From: a virus
Virus record (IMG/VR): IMGVR_UViG_3300045988_116736
Location: 1-40,355 of that record
Direction: 5' to 3' (one strand)
Length of the DNA stretch: 40,355 bases
The notes below the pieces were generated by a model. The model had not been told where the DNA came from, searched no databases, and saw only the letters and a program-made list of their open reading frames with translations. The position numbers were made by a program, and so were the translations under genes. Each line of letters starts with the position of its first letter. Position 1 is the first letter of the stretch. Shown here in pieces: positions 3,053-40,135 of the stretch.

Positions 3053-4006
3053 ATGGCAACCATGGTAACTACCACCTCTGGCCTTTCCCCCACTATGCAG
3101 TCCTACTACGACCGCAAGATGCTGGAGCACGCAAAGACCCAGTTTGTTTTCGCTAACTATGCCCAGAAGCGCAGCATACCTAAGAACAACGGTAAAACCG
3201 TGCAATTCCGCCGCTGGACCCTGTTCACTGCTGATCCCGATACTCAGGCGCTGACCGAGGGCACCACCCCCGCCGCACAGAATCTCTCCATGTCCGCGAT
3301 CACCGCCACTGTAAAGCAGTACGGCGCATACGTGGAGGTGTCCGACCTTCTCGACCTCACCGCTGTCGACAACATCATACACGATTCTTCCGAACTGCTT
3401 GGTGAGCAGCTTGGTAACGTTCTGGATATGATAGTCCGAGACGCTATGTCCGCCACAACCAATATACAGTACGCCGACGGCAAGACCAGCGACAACGATA
3501 TAACCGCCGCCCAGAAGCTCACCGTAGGCGAGATACGCAAGGCGGTTCGCACCCTCAAAAAGGCCAAGGCGCGCAAGTTCACCCGCAAGGGCGGCAAGCC
3601 CCACTATATCTGCATAGTGGACCCCGACGCCGTATACGACCTTCAGAGCGATTCCCTCTGGCAGGACGTTTCCAAATACAGCAATGCGGAGCAGATATAT
3701 GACGGCGAACTGGGCAAGATGTTCGGCGTGGTGTTCATAGAGACCACCAACGCCAAGATCGTCGAGAACACCGCCACCACCAAGTACGGCGTACACCAGA
3801 CCTTCGTGTTTGGCGCCGATTCCTACGGCGTGGTTGACGTCACCGGTCAGGGCGCTATAAAGGCTATCATAAAGCCTCACGGCTCCTCCGGCACCGCCGA
3901 CCCCCTCGACCAGCGCGCAACCGTGGGCGCAAAGGTGACTGCCTTCACTGCCTGCGTACTCAATGCAGATTGGCTCGTTTCAATCCATCACGGCGTTACC
4001 GCCTAA
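3053..4006 (+). CDS. major capsid protein (HK97-fold; resembles the family usually annotated N4-gp56-type)
   Basis: 317 aa. The N-terminal motif YYDRKMLEHAKTQFVFANYAQKRSIPKNNGKTVQFRRW is typical of this capsid family as I recall it. An AAGGAG SD precedes the gene and a strong terminator follows it. Confidence 0.85.
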   Translation: MATMVTTTSGLSPTMQSYYDRKMLEHAKTQFVFANYAQKRSIPKNNGKTVQFRRWTLFTADPDTQALTEGTTPAAQNLSMSAITATVKQYGAYVEVSDLLDLTAVDNIIHDSSELLGEQLGNVLDMIVRDAMSATTNIQYADGKTSDNDITAAQKLTVGEIRKAVRTLKKAKARKFTRKGGKPHYICIVDPDAVYDLQSDSLWQDVSKYSNAEQIYDGELGKMFGVVFIETTNAKIVENTATTKYGVHQTFVFGADSYGVVDVTGQGAIKAIIKPHGSSGTADPLDQRATVGAKVTAFTACVLNADWLVSIHHGVTA

Positions 4007-34465: not shown

Positions 34466-34789
34466 ATGAGTTTTGAGATTATTAACAGAAGAAAAAAGGA
34501 ACTGGGAATAGGAAATGCTGAACTTGCGGCCATGTCTGGGGTGCCAAAGGCTACTATCGATAAAATAACGTCAGGAGCTACGACAAACCCCAGCCTTGAA
34601 ACAATGAAGTCCATAGCCCGCGCCCTTAATGTGTCTCTGGACGCTTTCGACGACGAGCCCGCTGTGGATGCAGAACGTAGGGCGAAAGAACAAGAACTTT
34701 TGGCGGTGGTTAATGCGTTAGGCCTTGATTATTCGGAGGTTGTGAAGCGGCTTGTTCAATTAAAAGCAGACACTTCGCAAAAAGAATAA
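34466..34789 (+). CDS. CI-like XRE-family repressor (no peptidase domain)
   Basis: 107 aa with the HTH LGIGNAELAAMSGVPKATIDKITSG. It is divergent from the Cro-like gene across the operator array. Confidence 0.75.
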   Translation: MSFEIINRRKKELGIGNAELAAMSGVPKATIDKITSGATTNPSLETMKSIARALNVSLDAFDDEPAVDAERRAKEQELLAVVNALGLDYSEVVKRLVQLKADTSQKE

Positions 34790-35143
34790 CTTTATCCAGG
34801 TCACTGTTACTTAGGGAGTGAATGTTTTTCAAGAAGTCTCTCACGATTTTTACCTCCAAACACTTGTTCTGTTTTGATAATAACACGTTAGATTCAAAAA
34901 GAAAGGGGGAATTTGTATGAGAGTACCATAAACGGGACTGCGCTCAACGATGTTGCACAAATCGTGCCTCAAATTTAATCGGCAGGGGCGATTTCTCACC
35001 CCCGCCTAAGACGGTGGAGAAGCATCGGGGAACCGTCCTGAATAAAGCATAGCATTTATACCGCTCTAATCAATACTCATAAAGAAGCGTTTCGCTAACA
35101 TTCTTGTTTTTTCGCCACACATAAATGAAGAAGGTGATACCAT

Positions 35144-35551
35144 TTGTTGTTATATGAACATTTACGCGCCATGAAGGACGCGAGTAATATGACGGCGCAG
35201 CAGATAGCGGACAAAAGTAGTGTGCCCGTTGCCACGGTAAACCGCGTGCTTCAGGGCTTGACGGAAAATCCGGGGTTCGATACGGTCTACAAGATAGTAA
35301 AGGCCATGGGCGGGAGCCTGAACGATCTGGACGAGGATAGGGTGTGTGAGCCGGAAGGATTGACGCAGTTATACGAAAGAGGGTTAGAATACAGGGAGCG
35401 GAAGATAAAGAAGCTGGAACGCACGATAATGATAATAGCGGTATTTACTTTTATTGTTATGGCGGCGGTCATAGGAATGCTGGTATATGATATGACGCAT
35501 CCTAGCATTGGATGGATACAGACCGCGAGTAATGCGGTGGCAATGATATAG
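35144..35551 (+). CDS. membrane-tethered XRE-HTH protein
   Basis: 135 aa with a TTG start after GAAGGTGA; an ATG 9 codons downstream is the alternative. It has the HTH MTAQQIADKSSVPVATVNRVLQG and a C-terminal TM IMIIAVFTFIVMAAVIGMLVY. Confidence 0.6.
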   Translation: MLLYEHLRAMKDASNMTAQQIADKSSVPVATVNRVLQGLTENPGFDTVYKIVKAMGGSLNDLDEDRVCEPEGLTQLYERGLEYRERKIKKLERTIMIIAVFTFIVMAAVIGMLVYDMTHPSIGWIQTASNAVAMI

Positions 35552-35562
35552 GGAGGGGAACA

Positions 35563-36123
35563 ATGAGTAAGTGTGCACACTGCGGGACGGAGGATCGTCT
35601 TGTATACGAGGGGCTATGCCCAGATTGTACCAAGAAGTTAGACGGACTGTTCGAGTATTATGACTATATTGTGGTAGTAATGGGTTTTGCGTATGTGGCC
35701 TTCAAGGTTTTGTTGTTTAGATCTTTTGATGGTCCGATGAGTTTTCCGAATGCCCTGTTAGAGGTTGCCGGGATTGTCTTCGCTACGTTTATACTATACA
35801 TTATCGCGGCAATAGTAACAAAATTTACTTGTGTTAAAAGTAAGCGCTATCGTATAATTTGGGCCGTAAGCTTATGGGTTTTCTTAGCCTTCTTAACTTG
35901 GGGGCTGAGTAACGAAACGCAACCAGCGGTGACGCGCGATGACTATAATCAATTACAAGACGATTATGAGTCTCTTTATCATGATAACACCGACGTTTCG
36001 AACCGATATGACGATTTGATATATGATCTGCAATGCCTTTCCGATAGTATACGCAATGAAGATTACTATGGATACGATGAGATAGCTGATGAGCTCGACG
36101 AAATAGTATATATCCATGAATAA
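35563..36123 (+). CDS. zinc-ribbon polytopic membrane protein with acidic tail
   Basis: 186 aa. It has an N-terminal CAHCG...CPDC, three hydrophobic helices and a C-terminal Asp/Tyr-rich segment. Confidence 0.6.
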   Translation: MSKCAHCGTEDRLVYEGLCPDCTKKLDGLFEYYDYIVVVMGFAYVAFKVLLFRSFDGPMSFPNALLEVAGIVFATFILYIIAAIVTKFTCVKSKRYRIIWAVSLWVFLAFLTWGLSNETQPAVTRDDYNQLQDDYESLYHDNTDVSNRYDDLIYDLQCLSDSIRNEDYYGYDEIADELDEIVYIHE

Positions 36124-36246
36124 ATAAAGGAGCCTCGGTGCGGGAACACCAACGGCTCCGGGTGCAAAATAAGTCCTGACACGGGCTACTTTTTGCATCC
36201 TCTATTTTAACATAAATGACCAGAGAGTTAAAGGAGGATTTTGGAA

Positions 36247-37380
36247 ATGGCAAGGAAATTGAGAGAAAACGAAGCAACATTCTACTCGAACCGGGGCAAG
36301 GCCGGGCAGTGGATAATAAAGGTGCAGAGGGACGGCACCCAGAAACAGTTTACGTCATGCAAGCCCGGCAGGAAGGGCAAGCTGGAAGCCGAACGCAAGG
36401 CGGATGAGTGGTTGGAAAAGGGACTGACCGGCAAAGACCCGAGAGTTGCCGCCGCCTATGCCGAGTTTGTGGAAAGCAAGCGCAAAGAGGGCAAGTCCAG
36501 CGAGTGGCCTGTGAAGTTAGAAAGTCTGGGCCGCAATCATATCTTGCCATATTTAGAGCACAAGAAGGTGTCTGCCATAGTACAGCTGGACTGGAAGGGG
36601 GTTATCGATCACGCCGCCGCAGCTAAATATAACGGCAAACCATTGTCCCGGAAAACGTTGGAGAATATTCGCTCTGCAATAACTGGTTTTGTTGCATACT
36701 GTGACGATGCAGGATACCCAATTCGCGAGATCAAAACTCTTGAAATACCAGAGGACGCGCCTGTAGGCAAGCGGCAGATCATGAACCGAAACGACATACG
36801 CACACTATTTACGGTGGACACGACTGAGCGATACGGGCGACCTCTAAAGTGCTGGTATATAAACGCCTGGCGTTTGGCCTGCGTGATGGGATTTCGCCGC
36901 GGGGAAGTAGCGGGGTTTCAGCGCTCCGATTACGACGGTGAGCGATTGACCGTGCGGCGCTCAATCAACAGTAGGCAGGAGGTCACAAGCGGCAAAAATG
37001 GGACAGCTCACCGCTCCCCGGTGCTGCCACCAATTGCCAAACAAATAATCCGCGATCAGTTGGATATGCTAAAGGCTGCCGGCGTAGTTTCTCCGTGGCT
37101 ATTTCCGAAGGCCGACGGCACACAGAGCGTCCCTAATGACATATACCGCCGCTGGCTCACATATCGCAAGCAGCACGGCTTAACCGCCGTCACAATCCAT
37201 GAGATGCGACATACCAATATCAGCTATTTGCAGGACGAAGTACCGGAGCAGGCCCTTAAACACATGGTAGGTCACACCAAAACGATGGATACATTTGGCC
37301 AATACGGTCATGAGGTAGACGGGGAGGCAGCACGCACGGCTCAGGCGGTCGAGGACGTATTTAGAGACCTGATAAAATAA
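36247..37380 (+). CDS. int: tyrosine recombinase (integrase)
   Basis: The ATG at 36247 lies 9 nt after GGAGG. The catalytic pattern comprises GFRRGEV (Arg), HEMRHT (His-x-x-Arg) and GHTKTMDTFGQYGH (His and Tyr). Confidence 0.9.
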   Translation: MARKLRENEATFYSNRGKAGQWIIKVQRDGTQKQFTSCKPGRKGKLEAERKADEWLEKGLTGKDPRVAAAYAEFVESKRKEGKSSEWPVKLESLGRNHILPYLEHKKVSAIVQLDWKGVIDHAAAAKYNGKPLSRKTLENIRSAITGFVAYCDDAGYPIREIKTLEIPEDAPVGKRQIMNRNDIRTLFTVDTTERYGRPLKCWYINAWRLACVMGFRRGEVAGFQRSDYDGERLTVRRSINSRQEVTSGKNGTAHRSPVLPPIAKQIIRDQLDMLKAAGVVSPWLFPKADGTQSVPNDIYRRWLTYRKQHGLTAVTIHEMRHTNISYLQDEVPEQALKHMVGHTKTMDTFGQYGHEVDGEAARTAQAVEDVFRDLIK

Positions 37381-37449: not shown

Positions 37450-37477
37450 TGGTGGAGCATAGGGGATTCGAACCCCT
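37450..37477 (-). other. tRNA/tmRNA 3'-end-like segment (T-arm + acceptor 3' strand + CCA): putative attP core
   Basis: The - strand reads AGGGG-TTCGAAT-CCCCT-ATGCTCC-A-CCA. That is a canonical T stem-loop, a 7-nt acceptor strand with U at position 70 (Ala/tmRNA-like), a discriminator A and CCA. No matching 5' half is present. Confidence 0.6.
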
Positions 37478-37572
37478 GTAGCAGGGTATCTGGCAACCTC
37501 TCCATGCCGTCCGGCGTAGGCATTTAGGCGCTTTTGAGGCCGTATAACAACGCTGTATATGCACCCAGCCGC

Positions 37573-37598: not shown

Positions 37599-37631
37599 AC
37601 AATAAGGAGCCGTATCGACGGCCCATTGCTA

Positions 37632-38105
37632 TTATATCAGTATCCCCAACCTTTCGGCAAGTAGCTCGCGGCGCACCTGCGGGATCGGTTTGATTCCGGC
37701 GCACCACGAATGCACTGCGGCCTTGCTTACCTCACAGGCCTCGGCGGCCTGCTCCAACGTCAGGCCACGGGACTTGAGCTGATCCCGCAAATACTCGCCG
37801 TCGCTGAGCACGGGAGCGCACCGGCCTTGCATATAGGCAAGCTCCCACATGCCTTGCTGGTTGAGCGGCAGCGCGTGCTCGTCCTCGGTTATATCCTCCG
37901 CCCCTTGCAGCGCGTCCCGCATGGCTCTATCGACCTCCGGGGTGAGCTTGCGGTTAATGATCATATACCGCAACCCCTCACCCAGCCCACGGATGGGCCA
38001 CATATTAGCTGTCTGCACCCGGCAGCGCGCCCCGACTATTTCGGGGAGCTGCGCCGCCATTATACCATACGCCCGGCCCAGGGCCTTAACCGTGTTGTCT
38101 GTCAT
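37632..38105 (-). CDS. protein with C-terminal HTH (unknown N-domain)
   Basis: 157 aa with SD GGAGGTGA. The C-terminus LTLEQAAEACEVSKAAVHSWCAGIKPIP is XRE-like. Confidence 0.65.
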   Translation of the reverse strand: MTDNTVKALGRAYGIMAAQLPEIVGARCRVQTANMWPIRGLGEGLRYMIINRKLTPEVDRAMRDALQGAEDITEDEHALPLNQQGMWELAYMQGRCAPVLSDGEYLRDQLKSRGLTLEQAAEACEVSKAAVHSWCAGIKPIPQVRRELLAERLGILI

Positions 38106-38130
38106 GTGCTCACCTCCGTTAATCCTGCGA

Positions 38131-38358
38131 TTATATTAGTCTTGGCCGCATCAAAGCGGTAAATTTTTGCGCGGGTTTGTAACCTCTGTCCTTTACCGAC
38201 TGATAAAGCGCCCGGATTTCCTCGGGTCTGCCAGTCGTAAATGTAACCGCCCCCCGTGGGGTGATGTCCACAAACCGCACAGCGGGGCAAAAACCGAGGT
38301 CATAACAGACCTCATCATATGTCATCTCAATTTTTTCACCGTTTTTCACTACCTGCAT
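38131..38358 (-). CDS. hypothetical small protein (possible excisionase-like HTH)
   Basis: 75 aa with SD GGGAGGA. MTYDEVCYDLGFCPAVRFVDI faintly resembles Xis/MerR-type HTH_17, which is weak evidence. Confidence 0.55.
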   Translation of the reverse strand: MQVVKNGEKIEMTYDEVCYDLGFCPAVRFVDITPRGAVTFTTGRPEEIRALYQSVKDRGYKPAQKFTALMRPRLI

Positions 38359-38394
38359 TTTTATATCCTCCCATGTTGCTATACAATAACCGTT

Positions 38395-38598
38395 TTATCC
38401 TTCTAACCTGATTGCACTGGCGTTATATTGTTGTTTGTACCAATCCGCATAGCGCATAATATTCAGCGCGTCGTCCTTAGTTAGTGGTGATGCAAATTTC
38501 TTGGACGATACAAAATCAAAACAATAATTACCTTGCTTACGATACCATATTTTCATTCCATTATCTACTCCATACGGATTCAGCAAATATACATACAT
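38395..38598 (-). CDS. hypothetical small protein
   Basis: 67 aa starting MYVYLLNPYG, 6 nt after AAGGAGG. The longer track ORF lacks an SD. Confidence 0.55.
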   Translation of the reverse strand: MYVYLLNPYGVDNGMKIWYRKQGNYCFDFVSSKKFASPLTKDDALNIMRYADWYKQQYNASAIRLEG

Positions 38599-38668
38599 AT
38601 TGTACCTCCTTAAAATCATATCTTGTAGTTCCTTCTGCCGCCGGGCTTGTGACCGGCCTGCCGTGCTC

Positions 38669-38908
38669 CTAACACCAGCCCCAGAGGTCAATCCATGCAC
38701 GGGGGCAGAATATTGTATATGTCACACTGTCTGCATCATACGTGCGCCTCCCCACCACTGGCAGCTCATTGTCGTCTATTATTTTGTCCAATTCTGGTAC
38801 CGTAGCACCGTACGTGCCGTATACGCCGCAGCCCTCGCGTGTGATCTCGTTCCTCACAAACTGCATGTTGTACCTCTGTGCGATTTCCATTAATTCAGCC
38901 TTATCCAT
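38669..38908 (-). CDS. hypothetical small protein
   Basis: 79 aa with SD AAAGGAGA. Confidence 0.6.
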   Translation of the reverse strand: MDKAELMEIAQRYNMQFVRNEITREGCGVYGTYGATVPELDKIIDDNELPVVGRRTYDADSVTYTIFCPRAWIDLWGWC

Positions 38909-38970
38909 TTTTATCTCCTTTCTTGCAGGGCGGTTTAGCCGCCGCCCTACGGCGTTATCCTGCGTCTCTG

Positions 38971-39357
38971 TTAGTCGTCCATTGCCCTACGCATCATCTC
39001 GCGGTGCGCATTGTAGGCGGCCTCTGCCGCCATGCTGCGCTCCAGCTTTGCGGCCGCCTCGGCGCGCTCCTCGCCGTATATCTCGGCGGCAATATCGTCA
39101 GGTATTGCCACCAGTATGCGGTTCTTACCTTGGTAAGCGATCAGTATGCAATTAACGCCCCGCTCCGTCCAAAGCTCTTTAAGGTCGGTGGGCTTGCCGT
39201 TGACCGTCATAGTATCGACGCTGTAATCGTAGCGGCTGCAATTAGCCTCAACCTTAAACCCGTCGGCGTCAACCGTCTCGCGGGTGATATGCTCGGTTGT
39301 GATAGTGGCTACAATCTCCGCGCCCTTGGCGGTAGTCCATGCGTAAGTCTTAGTCAT
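38971..39357 (-). CDS. hypothetical protein
   Basis: 128 aa and the first gene after the strong - strand promoter. It has a beta-rich N-terminus and a helical Ala/Glu-rich C-terminus. Confidence 0.6.
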   Translation of the reverse strand: MTKTYAWTTAKGAEIVATITTEHITRETVDADGFKVEANCSRYDYSVDTMTVNGKPTDLKELWTERGVNCILIAYQGKNRILVAIPDDIAAEIYGEERAEAAAKLERSMAAEAAYNAHREMMRRAMDD

Positions 39358-39387
39358 TGCTCTGTGCTCCTCTCTTGTTATGTCTAT

Positions 39388-39416
39388 ATTGTATACCGTA
39401 ACGGTTCGTTTGTCAA
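39388..39416 (-). promoter_or_regulatory. PL-like promoter TTGACA-17-TACAAT with internal palindrome
   Basis: On the - strand the -35 TTGACA lies at 39411-39416 and the -10 TACAAT at 39388-39393. The spacer contains ACCGT-A-ACGGT (39395-39405), which resembles the operator cores at 34342-34411. Confidence 0.7.
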
Positions 39417-39422
39417 CCTATA

Positions 39423-39431
39423 TGGTATAAT
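39423..39431 (+). promoter_or_regulatory. extended -10 element TGGTATAAT facing terS
   Basis: An exact TGnTATAAT. The 10-mer TGGTATAATT is the same as at 33600-33609. It sits back-to-back with the - strand promoter. Confidence 0.5.
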
Positions 39432-39576
39432 TACGTAAAAAATAAGGCAATCGCCTAAAATAATAATGTCGGAATCGTTCCTGCAAACATGAGTCGGTCG
39501 GCATTATAATAGGTAGGCAAACTCCGGGAAATAATCCGATATTTCCCAATTTGCGCAAACCACATCACAAAATCTA

Positions 39577-39631: not shown

Positions 39632-39664
39632 TGCCCAGAATAAGCCATGAAAGGAGGGTGGACA

Positions 39665-40135
39665 ATGAAACGAGCATTTACATGCCCGGCGGAGCTGGAA
39701 AAACTCGTGGATGAGTATTTTTCTATGTGTTCGGCCACAGAGGAGCAGCTACACCTAAAAAACGGTGATGTCAGAATCCGCAGGACATTGCCGTCAATAG
39801 TCGGTCTGGCCGTCCATCTGGGTATAGCCAAATCCACATTATTGCTATACGCTGAGGGTAAATACGATAATGATAACAATACTGCTAATAGTAATAATAA
39901 TGGCAATGGGTGTGAAGACATACAGAACTATTCAACCATCCTCGCCCGCGCGCGCGACCGCATCGAGCTGGAAACCCTGAACGCGGCGTCCAACGGCGAC
40001 ACGGATAGCCGCATAACGCTGGCGAGGTTAGCCAAATTTGGGTATAGTACCAAAATCGAGACCGAGGGCAAAACGGATTTAACCATCAAATGGGTGGGTG
40101 TAAGCACCGACGATATACGGGAGTGGGGTAAGTAA
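39665..40135 (+). CDS. terS: terminase small subunit
   Basis: The ATG at 39665 follows AAAGGAGGGTGGACA. The motifs ELEKLVDEYFSMC, LPSIVGLAVHLGIAKSTLLLYAEG and ILARARDRIE...LARLAKFGY fit the small-terminase HTH plus oligomerisation pattern. Confidence 0.7.
   Translation: MKRAFTCPAELEKLVDEYFSMCSATEEQLHLKNGDVRIRRTLPSIVGLAVHLGIAKSTLLLYAEGKYDNDNNTANSNNNGNGCEDIQNYSTILARARDRIELETLNAASNGDTDSRITLARLAKFGYSTKIETEGKTDLTIKWVGVSTDDIREWGK

Follow-up and report, generated by a model that had tools for sequence, protein, structure and literature searches.

Loci in which a conserved helix-turn-helix (HTH) gene accompanies variable orphan cargo have the anatomy that is used in the guilt-by-association discovery of anti-CRISPR (Acr) proteins (PMC7913775; 10.1101/2023.05.22.541795). 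One of these proteins, AcrIC5, has orthologues in Firmicutes and Actinobacteria and also inhibits the type I-C system of the gut bacterium Eggerthella lenta (León et al., PMC7913775). Other inhibitors are homologues of Cascade subunits: AcrIB4 is homologous to the last 90 residues of Cas8b, AcrIB3 to Cas5, and the two block type I-B Cascade at a stage before it binds DNA (Katz et al., 10.1101/2023.06.24.545427; PMC13131331). Katz et al. have listed hundreds of orphan viral cas genes, and their Table S3 includes orphan cas8c matches in gut Lachnospiraceae phages (10.1101/2023.06.24.545427). Fusions between an Acr and an anti-CRISPR-associated (Aca) regulator are known for the Cas9 inhibitors AcrIIA11 and AcrIIA15 (PMC13131331). 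The locus described here is a cassette of five small genes, g1 to g5, carried by the virus record IMGVR_UViG_3300045988_116736, whose 40,355 nucleotides were analysed in full and are called the window below. It is probably a mobile operon of the acr-aca type, with an anti-defence role directed at type I-C CRISPR-Cas, in which g5 would be an Aca-like autorepressor and a plausible Cascade mimic, and g1-g4 candidate inhibitors.

All five open reading frames (ORFs) are found on the minus strand, with the limits that had been proposed from the letters alone (hereafter the sequence-only reading), small, co-oriented and directed toward attP. A GGAG-type Shine-Dalgarno (SD) sequence lies 6-9 nt 5' of each of them. 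They follow one promoter and are separated by gaps of 25-70 nt. Each of the five proteins has an exact copy in public gene calls, where the 90%-identity clusters comprise 34 to 438 members.

g1: 38971-39357, minus strand; 128 aa, isoelectric point (pI) 5.0 (acidic), family F9
g2: 38669-38908, minus strand; 79 aa, pI 4.5 (acidic), family F10
g3: 38395-38598, minus strand; 67 aa, pI 9.1 (basic), family F5; its ATG lies within a longer GTG ORF
g4: 38131-38358, minus strand; 75 aa, pI 9.1 (basic), family F2
g5: 37632-38105, minus strand; 157 aa, with an N-terminal Cas11c-like domain (about aa 1-100) and a C-terminal XRE HTH (about aa 103-154)

The longest ORF of g3 (38395-38700, minus strand) has a GTG start 34 codons upstream and overlaps both the end of g2 and a ribozyme remnant described below. 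The 67-aa form, with an ATG start and an AGGAGG SD, is the one that both the public gene calls and the sister cassettes show. The GTG extension is therefore probably not translated.

Nucleotide comparisons indicate that the cassette is a mobile module, and our confidence in its anatomy and mobility is high. In the following, loci are designated L001, L002 and so on.

Whole module: 37630-39451, minus strand; promoter, 5' untranslated region (5'UTR) and five genes, about 95% identical (blastn) to L002, L004 and L005, with unrelated flanks

The homology extends from the stop codon of g5 (37630) to a point about 35 bp past the -35 element (39451). L002 is a contig of 103 kb, in which the cassette has MazE/PIN, PIN7, DUF4942, DpnD-PcfM, SSB and YhcG as neighbours and no phage structural genes within 10 kb. 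The g5 of the window differs from its relatives chiefly by synonymous codons; relative to L002, it has 33 synonymous and 6 non-synonymous changes.

Homologues of g5 with 88-96% identity were collected from 68 IMG/VR loci and several metagenome contigs. Cargo families F1-F10 were defined by clustering, and architectures were counted over 75 related cassettes. All of these keep the promoter/5'UTR and g5, and the ten cargo families occur in at least 14 architectures. The families are mostly acidic (pI 4.2-5.7); g3, g4 and F8 are basic.

F1: 44 aa
F2: 75 aa, the family of g4
F3: 108 aa
F4: 167 aa
F5: 67 aa, the family of g3
F6: 164 aa
F7: 66 aa, AcrIC5 homologue
F8: 59 aa
F9: 128 aa, the family of g1
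F10: 79 aa, the family of g2

The genes next to the cassette vary as well: a tyrosine integrase, a serine recombinase, or no integrase at all. A constant promoter and a constant terminal HTH gene, with shuffled orphans between them, thus make up the anatomy of acr-aca loci. Indeed, the gene layout indicates that the HTH gene is co-transcribed with small orphan genes, and the cargo varies between a constant promoter and an aca-like gene across mobile elements. Searches for g5 in plasmids gave no match, and P0167 gave nothing in viral contigs. One 74-kb contig, IMGVR_UViG_3300045988_115933, carries two g5 cassettes (L059 and L071) about 38 kb apart; a tandem prophage or an assembled concatemer may account for this.

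A known anti-CRISPR family occurs in the sister cassettes L006-L012, which belong to an unrelated HK97-type phage and have the operon F7-F5-F2-g5. F7 matches the Pfam family PF22147 with 46.6 bits (cut-off 27) and covers the full profile. It also matches the PDB entry 7yhr, 'Anti-CRISPR protein Type I-C5', over its full length (E 1.2e-5). F7 occupies the position of g1-g2, ahead of g3-g4-g5, and is present in 10 of the 75 cassettes. The HTH gene is thus linked to a validated Acr family in the F7-F5-F2-g5 cassettes, not in the window.

The C-terminal HTH of g5, which the sequence-only reading had recognized as XRE-like, scores 29.4 bits against HTH_31 and 25.2 bits against HTH_3, both over the Pfam cut-offs. 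It is invariant among close homologues. PADLOC gives just HTH-level matches to capH/mad1, and phmmer against the PDB just the HTH of CapH (E 0.1). The same reading saw a recognizable feature, this HTH, in the last product only; the HTH is, however, not the only such feature of g5, as the N-terminal domain is Cas11c-like. A HMMER search of residues 1-100 against 1.8 billion representative proteins gave 16 matches, about 14 of which are genuine. These relatives mostly have 150-160 aa and the same two-domain layout, with 29-42% identity; a few are proteins of 101 aa that consist of the N-domain alone. The extreme C-terminus of the Pfam family Cas_Csd1, that is, Cas8c (positions ~485-555 of 559), is matched by five of ten distant relatives, with E-values of 6.6e-6, 1.4e-5, 8e-4, 4e-3 and 5e-3.

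A profile built from 16 N-domains (A4) was searched by hmmsearch against all PDB sequences. Its ten best matches are all type I-C Cas11c or the C-terminus of Cas8c, from three systems. The best of them is 8g9s_H (Cas11), with an E-value of 1.7e-4 and profile positions 8-94 aligned with residues 12-107 of 124; the others include 7kha_K (E 5.5e-3), 9jhc_A (E 4.6e-3) and 9jhb_B. The hhalign comparison of A4 with the 8g9s_H segment gives a probability of 94.8%.

Structure prediction followed by Foldseek, a check proposed in the sequence-only reading for each product, was run on g5. The AlphaFold2 model calculated on a deeper alignment (A2) is all-helical, with a predicted local distance difference test score (pLDDT) of 94 and a predicted template modelling score (pTM) of 0.84. 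It replaced a model calculated on close homologues only (alignment A1), which was unusable (pLDDT 45). In the Foldseek comparison with the PDB, the short matches are generic XRE domains (HigA, C.AhdI, SinR, CapH). The only matches over more than 100 columns with a root-mean-square deviation below 6 Å are 9jhb_B (Cas11c) and 8g9s_K and 8g9t_K (Cas8c), with probabilities of 0.94-0.95. BFVD contains uncharacterised gut-virome relatives, both two-domain and N-domain-only.

Together, the profile searches and the model point with high confidence to the N-domain of g5 being a remote homologue of Cas11c, descended from the C-terminal domain of Cas8c. Around the members of the g5 family that were examined, neither cas genes nor CRISPR arrays occur within 4-10 kb on either side; g5 is therefore not itself a Cas11c but an orphan derivative of it, carried by viruses. 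The members of the family lie at prophage ends, beside integrases or lysis genes. Like AcrIB3 and AcrIB4, g5 is thus an orphan homologue of a Cascade subunit that a mobile element carries in an anti-defence setting. Table S3 of Katz et al. lists none of the six contigs that were checked here. The searched literature contained no account of a protein in which a Cas11c-like domain is joined to an HTH, which is not proof of novelty.

A 258-aa protein in L086 (1106-1882, plus strand) has a Cas11c-like C-terminus (Cas_Csd1, E 0.025) that can be aligned to the N-domain of g5, and has no XRE HTH. It is a second, independent architecture for the Cas11c-like domain. In MT835524.1, an F6-like gene lies directly 5' of a g5-like gene (35% identity), which points to a partnership that has been conserved.

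The sequence upstream of g1 contains the following elements.

Promoter: 39388-39416, minus strand; sigma-70-type, TTGACA-17-TACAAT, 11/12 consensus positions
Palindrome: 39395-39405; perfect 5-1-5 repeat ACCGTnACGGT in the promoter spacer, candidate operator, only perfect match in the window
5'UTR block: 39367-39387, minus strand; ATAGACATAACAAGAGAGGAG, 21 nt, directly after the -10 element, includes the SD of g1

The promoter had been described as the strongest in the genome, a claim that holds by consensus score only: it is the sole match to at least 11 of the 12 sigma-70 consensus positions on both strands of the whole window. Its -35 and -10 columns are kept across 39 distinct promoter sequences of related cassettes. 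Conservation extends from about -75 to the start codon, despite at least seven different upstream flanks. In nearly every one of 80 loci, the 5'UTR block occurs 286 to 1284 bp 5' of g5 homologues, with at most 3-4 mismatches.

In some cassettes, namely L023 (5314), L025, L027 (5315), L057 (5462) and L058, a downstream gene is preceded by a further copy of this block (..ACAGACATAACAAGAGAGGAG) inside the operon. The internal copies have neither a -35 element nor a palindrome, and they suggest that cargo genes are swapped through recombination in the common leader and SD region.

The palindrome of the window stops one base short of the -10 element. Most sister promoters have A(T/C)CTGnCAGGT at the same position, with 4-5 of the 5 arm positions complementary. 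Compared with them, the ACCGTnACGGT of the window has its inner two bases changed symmetrically on both arms. A shared operator was sought across all sister promoters, and just a weak xYC-N5-GRT pattern emerged, which holds too little information to be claimed. Distant g5-like genes also have consensus promoters with inverted repeats: a 12-nt perfect repeat lies across the -35 element in L087, and TATAG-N8-CTATA lies in the promoter spacer of L090. A palindrome in the spacer is thus a recurrent trait of this promoter family, which supports autoregulation by the HTH protein in general.

In L082 and L083, homologues of g1 are found behind TTGACA-ATACGCYAATATTAGCGTA-TATAAT promoters. This promoter is duplicated, with one copy before the g1 homologue and the other before an adjacent, different XRE-HTH gene. 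The spacer contains a 20-bp near-perfect palindrome, ATACGCYAATATTAGCGTAT (L082:3176-3348 and 3805-4000; L083:3031-3217 and 3838-4000), and the leader (..AAACAAGAGAGGGG) is similar to the 5'UTR of the window.

Many of the sister cassettes also contain a self-cleaving ribozyme. A complete Type-P5 twister ribozyme (RF02684) is found in 42 of the 75 cassettes, on the sense strand, in an intergenic position and always directly after F4, F7 or F8. Its scores there are 64-65 bits (the gathering score is 37.6), with E-values down to 1.3e-13.

Full twister sites: L006:9415-9467 (plus strand); L013:5925-5977; L043:5925-5977; L033:5268-5320; L057:5673-5725; L065:5413-5465
Twister 3' hairpin remnant of the window: 38641-38663, minus strand; RF02684 match at 38641-38701, 24.3 bits, under the gathering score, at the same position as the full ribozyme of the sisters

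The window, L002 and L005 retain the 3' hairpin only, and the end of g2 replaces the 5' half. The junction between g1-g2 and g3-g4-g5 is therefore inside the ribozyme. The remnant is probably inactive. That it might be a complete but divergent ribozyme was considered and rejected: it lacks the whole 5' half, to which the core segments AGAG and UAAU belong. Cleavage by a complete twister would leave the first cargo gene on one RNA and everything after it, regulator included, on another; any effect on expression is speculation. No paper tying natural twister ribozymes to anti-CRISPR loci or operons was found. Elsewhere in the HK97-like phage, L006 contains a Pistol self-cleaving ribozyme (RF02679; 19653-19741, minus strand; 43.6 bits, gathering score 34.5).

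The four cargo genes of the window differ in their associations. Homologues of g1 reach down to 38% identity and are tied to three kinds of partners: g5, XRE proteins of 93 and 151 aa (L081-L083), and the 258-aa protein of L086, two genes upstream of which the g1 homologue is located. The g2 gene is seen just with g1. In sister cassettes g3 follows the AcrIC5 homologue and the twister, and it is also found in other phage accessory clusters without g5. In IMG/VR, g4 is always directly 5' of g5, yet it is present in just 24 of the 75 cassettes.

Weak single matches of g1 to PKD_6 (E 0.025) and of g4 to ALS_ss_C (E 0.11) and REase_II (E 0.047) were taken as noise, as were those of g2 to LdhH and of g4 to flavodoxin. 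The match of g4 to designer PPR proteins in the PDB, with E-values to 1e-18 and no significant stretch, is an artefact, because one 22-aa similarity is summed over tandem repeats. In the IMG/VR contigs L126 (1716-2144, plus strand) and L127 (3364-3792, plus strand), g1-g2 are followed by a 142-aa ORF and not by g3-g5. The C-terminus of this ORF is DUF6364-like and looks like a ribbon-helix-helix (E 7e-5). A serine recombinase comes next in L126, on the opposite strand, and L127 has a degraded g5 fragment that matches part of the gene at 73% identity.

The window represents the complete, circular genome of a temperate phage (about 40 kb), and the 40-kb contigs L001 and L003 are identical to it. 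The surroundings of the cassette are as follows.

Small terminase: 39647-40135, plus strand; GP3_package, E 1.9e-11; divergent neighbour beyond the g1 side
Tyrosine integrase: 36241-37380, plus strand; flanks the cassette at the attP side
3' end of the transfer-messenger RNA (tmRNA) gene ssrA, in attP: 37450-37565, minus strand; Rfam RF00023, E 4.8e-6; ends ...GGGGUUCGAAUCCCCUAUGCUCCACCA
Terminator-like hairpin: 37607-37624, minus strand; from a pattern scan only, 7-bp stem and weak T tract; just 3' of g5, beyond the shared module

The genes g1-g5 are all directed toward attP, that is, toward the 3' end of the tmRNA gene. The presence of this 3' end in attP indicates ssrA as the predicted integration site of the phage. 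ARAGORN makes no tmRNA call in the window, because only a fragment of the gene is present. As attP adjoins g5, the cassette would be the outermost block at one end of the prophage in a lysogen. A search for the host in 185,579 species genomes gave no match, either with g5 patterns or with the exact 32-nt 3' end of the tmRNA.

Upstream of the integrase gene, the region 34466-36123 (plus strand) encodes two HTH_3 proteins of 107 and 135 aa and a 186-aa ORF, and faces a leftward early operon. It looks like the actual CI/Cro-type switch of the phage, separate from g5. The idea that g5 is the main CI repressor was rejected on account of this divergent HTH switch (107-aa and 135-aa proteins, 34466-35551).

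The explanation that we consider probable, though well short of certain, is the acr-aca-type operon. The strong promoter would drive the production of g1-g4, the candidate inhibitors. The XRE HTH of g5 is predicted to repress this promoter at the inverted repeat of the spacer, as Aca proteins do. By way of its N-domain, g5 may join or bind the type I-C Cascade and act as a faulty subunit of it, in parallel to AcrIB4 in type I-B, which would make g5 an Acr-Aca fusion; at minimum, the domain may be a dimerisation module. We infer the repression by g5, the anti-CRISPR activity of any of the products and the timing of expression. Confidence in the anti-CRISPR role is moderate, and confidence in any specific mechanism is low. 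The most likely target is type I-C CRISPR-Cas.

Several points weigh against this explanation. The window itself contains no known Acr family, and its tie to AcrIC5 is solely via the sister cassettes. The products of g1-g4 have no match in Pfam, PHROGs, PADLOC, NCBIfam or PDB sequences, and the basic character of g3 and g4 sets them apart from the usual DNA-mimic Acrs, which are acidic. That the host has a type I-C system is presumed. As for g5, the protein itself has no match to Cas_Csd1 at E<=1, and its homology to this family is transitive, via relatives of 22-41% identity. The two best of the relatives score 25.5 and 24.4 bits against Cas_Csd1 (PF09709), which is 1.5-2.6 below the 27-bit gathering score, and the Foldseek E-values for Cas11c/Cas8c are weak (0.3-0.6). 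A minority of sister promoters lack the palindrome at the expected position, and its sequence varies across the cassettes though the HTH of g5 is invariant. The palindrome had been put forward as operator-like; it does sit where related promoters have palindromes, but it is weaker evidence than was assumed, because its sequence is not conserved. Since the recognition helix of g5 is invariant and the palindrome variable, the palindrome is no more than a candidate for its binding site.

A more elaborate form of the acr-aca explanation makes g5 a Cascade-sensing switch. Its Cas11c-like domain would replace genuine Cas11c and poison Cascade, and this binding would titrate g5 off the operator, so that the operon would be de-repressed only in hosts with a type I-C system; in the sister cassettes, the twister would cut the transcript behind the first cargo gene, ahead of the regulator, and thereby set the expression ratio of the two. 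This we regard as a long shot.

Among the alternatives, the one that survives best, unlikely as it seems to us, is that g5 is merely a transcription factor. Its Cas11c-derived domain would have been exapted for dimerisation or a ligand, and the cassette would be a generic 'moron' that does not act on CRISPR-Cas and serves, for example, in superinfection exclusion, in the takeover of the host or against some other defence. This would fit the lack of known relatives of g1-g4, the occurrence of g3 and of F1/F6-like genes in clusters without g5, and the location at a prophage end with an own promoter, like that of morons. Reuse of the Cas11 fold for dimerisation is plausible, because Cas11 subunits are adjacent to one another in Cascade. 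It would then be a notable coincidence that the AcrIC5 homologue of the ten sister cassettes targets the same CRISPR subtype as that from which the g5 domain originates. Moreover AcrIB4, which is a homologue of the C-terminal domain of Cas8b, is a proven Acr.

It has also to be considered that g5 may be a CasPR-like DNA-binding anti-CRISPR, which silences the transcription of the cas genes of the host and is not, or not only, an autorepressor or a subunit mimic. One report describes phage DNA-binding proteins that repress cas operons as abundant in Bacillota prophages and active in lysogeny (10.64898/2026.02.23.707548). An invariant HTH, facing a palindrome that varies in its own promoter, would be consistent with a conserved target elsewhere. 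However, the CasPRs are made of CapR and AP2 domains, not of a Cas11-like domain and an XRE HTH (10.64898/2026.02.23.707548), and the recurrence of spacer-palindrome promoters in distant relatives favors autoregulation. We find this proposal improbable.

Two further proposals take up ideas of the sequence-only reading, and each has very little chance of being right. The first, a type II toxin-antitoxin or abortive-infection pair made of g4 (toxin) and g5 (HTH antitoxin), has in its favor the order of a small protein followed by an XRE-HTH protein, the superposition of the g5 HTH on HigA-type antitoxins (Foldseek) and a weak TIGR02607 HigA match (E 0.07), but it is largely refuted by gene co-occurrence, as g5 is found without g4 in 51 of the 75 cassettes, which rules out obligate pairing; besides, g4 has no toxin-family match (Pfam, PHROGs, NCBIfam, PADLOC), any XRE protein would show such similarity of the HTH, and the 100-aa Cas11c-like domain is not present in known antitoxins. 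The second, an early-left operon with g4 as the excisionase and host-takeover genes, draws on the proximity of attP and int and on the fact that no excisionase is annotated elsewhere in the phage, but the module moves with its own promoter, the g3-g4-g5 block is also carried by phages in which another recombinase, or none, lies beside it, and g4 has no match to Xis/HTH_17 or any other HTH at E<=1 (Pfam), nor to a PHROG excisionase.

The sequence-only reading had also placed the cassette at a prophage end as accessory cargo for defence or anti-defence. The end position, the accessory nature of the cargo, the strong promoter with its operator-like repeat and the anti-defence part are retained, and the defence part is not; of the three specific alternatives in that reading, none fits well. 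Indeed, a lysogen-expressed defence set is disfavored by the absence of a meaningful PADLOC match, and the AcrIC5 homologue and the Cas11c-like domain point to anti-defence; defence is thus the less likely of the two.

If the acr-aca explanation is true, g5 would provide a new Aca-like marker gene for anti-CRISPR mining in the Firmicutes phages of the human gut, with about ten linked cargo families, g1-g4 included. It would be a type I-C counterpart of AcrIB3/AcrIB4 fused to the regulator of its locus, and would join in one protein the evolution of Acrs from cas genes and the Acr-Aca fusions. The coupling of inhibitor expression to the presence of the target would become directly testable, and a natural self-cleaving ribozyme would be found inside an anti-defence operon. 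One report describes the use of type I-C systems for large-deletion genome editing (10.1101/2023.08.05.552134), so that new I-C inhibitors would be of practical value.

The cassette is comparable to acr-aca operons such as the aca1-linked acrIC5 and the acrIF loci of Pseudomonas mobile elements. It has the same inverted-repeat promoter, variable orphans and conserved HTH gene, it is likewise spread over phages and mobile elements, and its sister loci contain an AcrIC5 homologue. Unlike in those operons, the HTH protein has 157 aa and an extra Cas11c-like domain, and many of the sister operons hold a twister.

Cas11c is the internally translated C-terminal domain of Cas8c (8g9s_H, 7kha_K, 9jhb_B). 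It has in common with the N-domain of g5 a helical fold of about 100 aa and the motifs LG..Y, A(S)..P and L.L.QQG.W..(G)YY. In contrast to Cas11c, g5 is encoded outside a cas operon, is under the Pfam gathering threshold, has a C-terminal HTH and belongs to a small, rare family.

Like AcrIB4 of Listeria, g5 is an orphan, phage-borne homologue of the Cas8 C-terminal/Cas11 region, located in an anti-defence-type locus away from a cas operon. The two differ in that g5 is of type I-C and not I-B origin, that its similarity is at the profile level whereas AcrIB4 has 38% identity, that it is fused to an XRE HTH, and that its activity is predicted.

AcrIIA1 is another Acr-Aca fusion. The likeness of g5 to such fusions is the combination, in one polypeptide, of an autoregulating HTH with a domain that acts on a Cas effector, both functions being predictions in the case of g5. 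The known fusions target Cas9 with effector domains that are not homologous to Cas proteins, whereas the non-HTH domain of g5 is itself a homologue of a Cas subunit.

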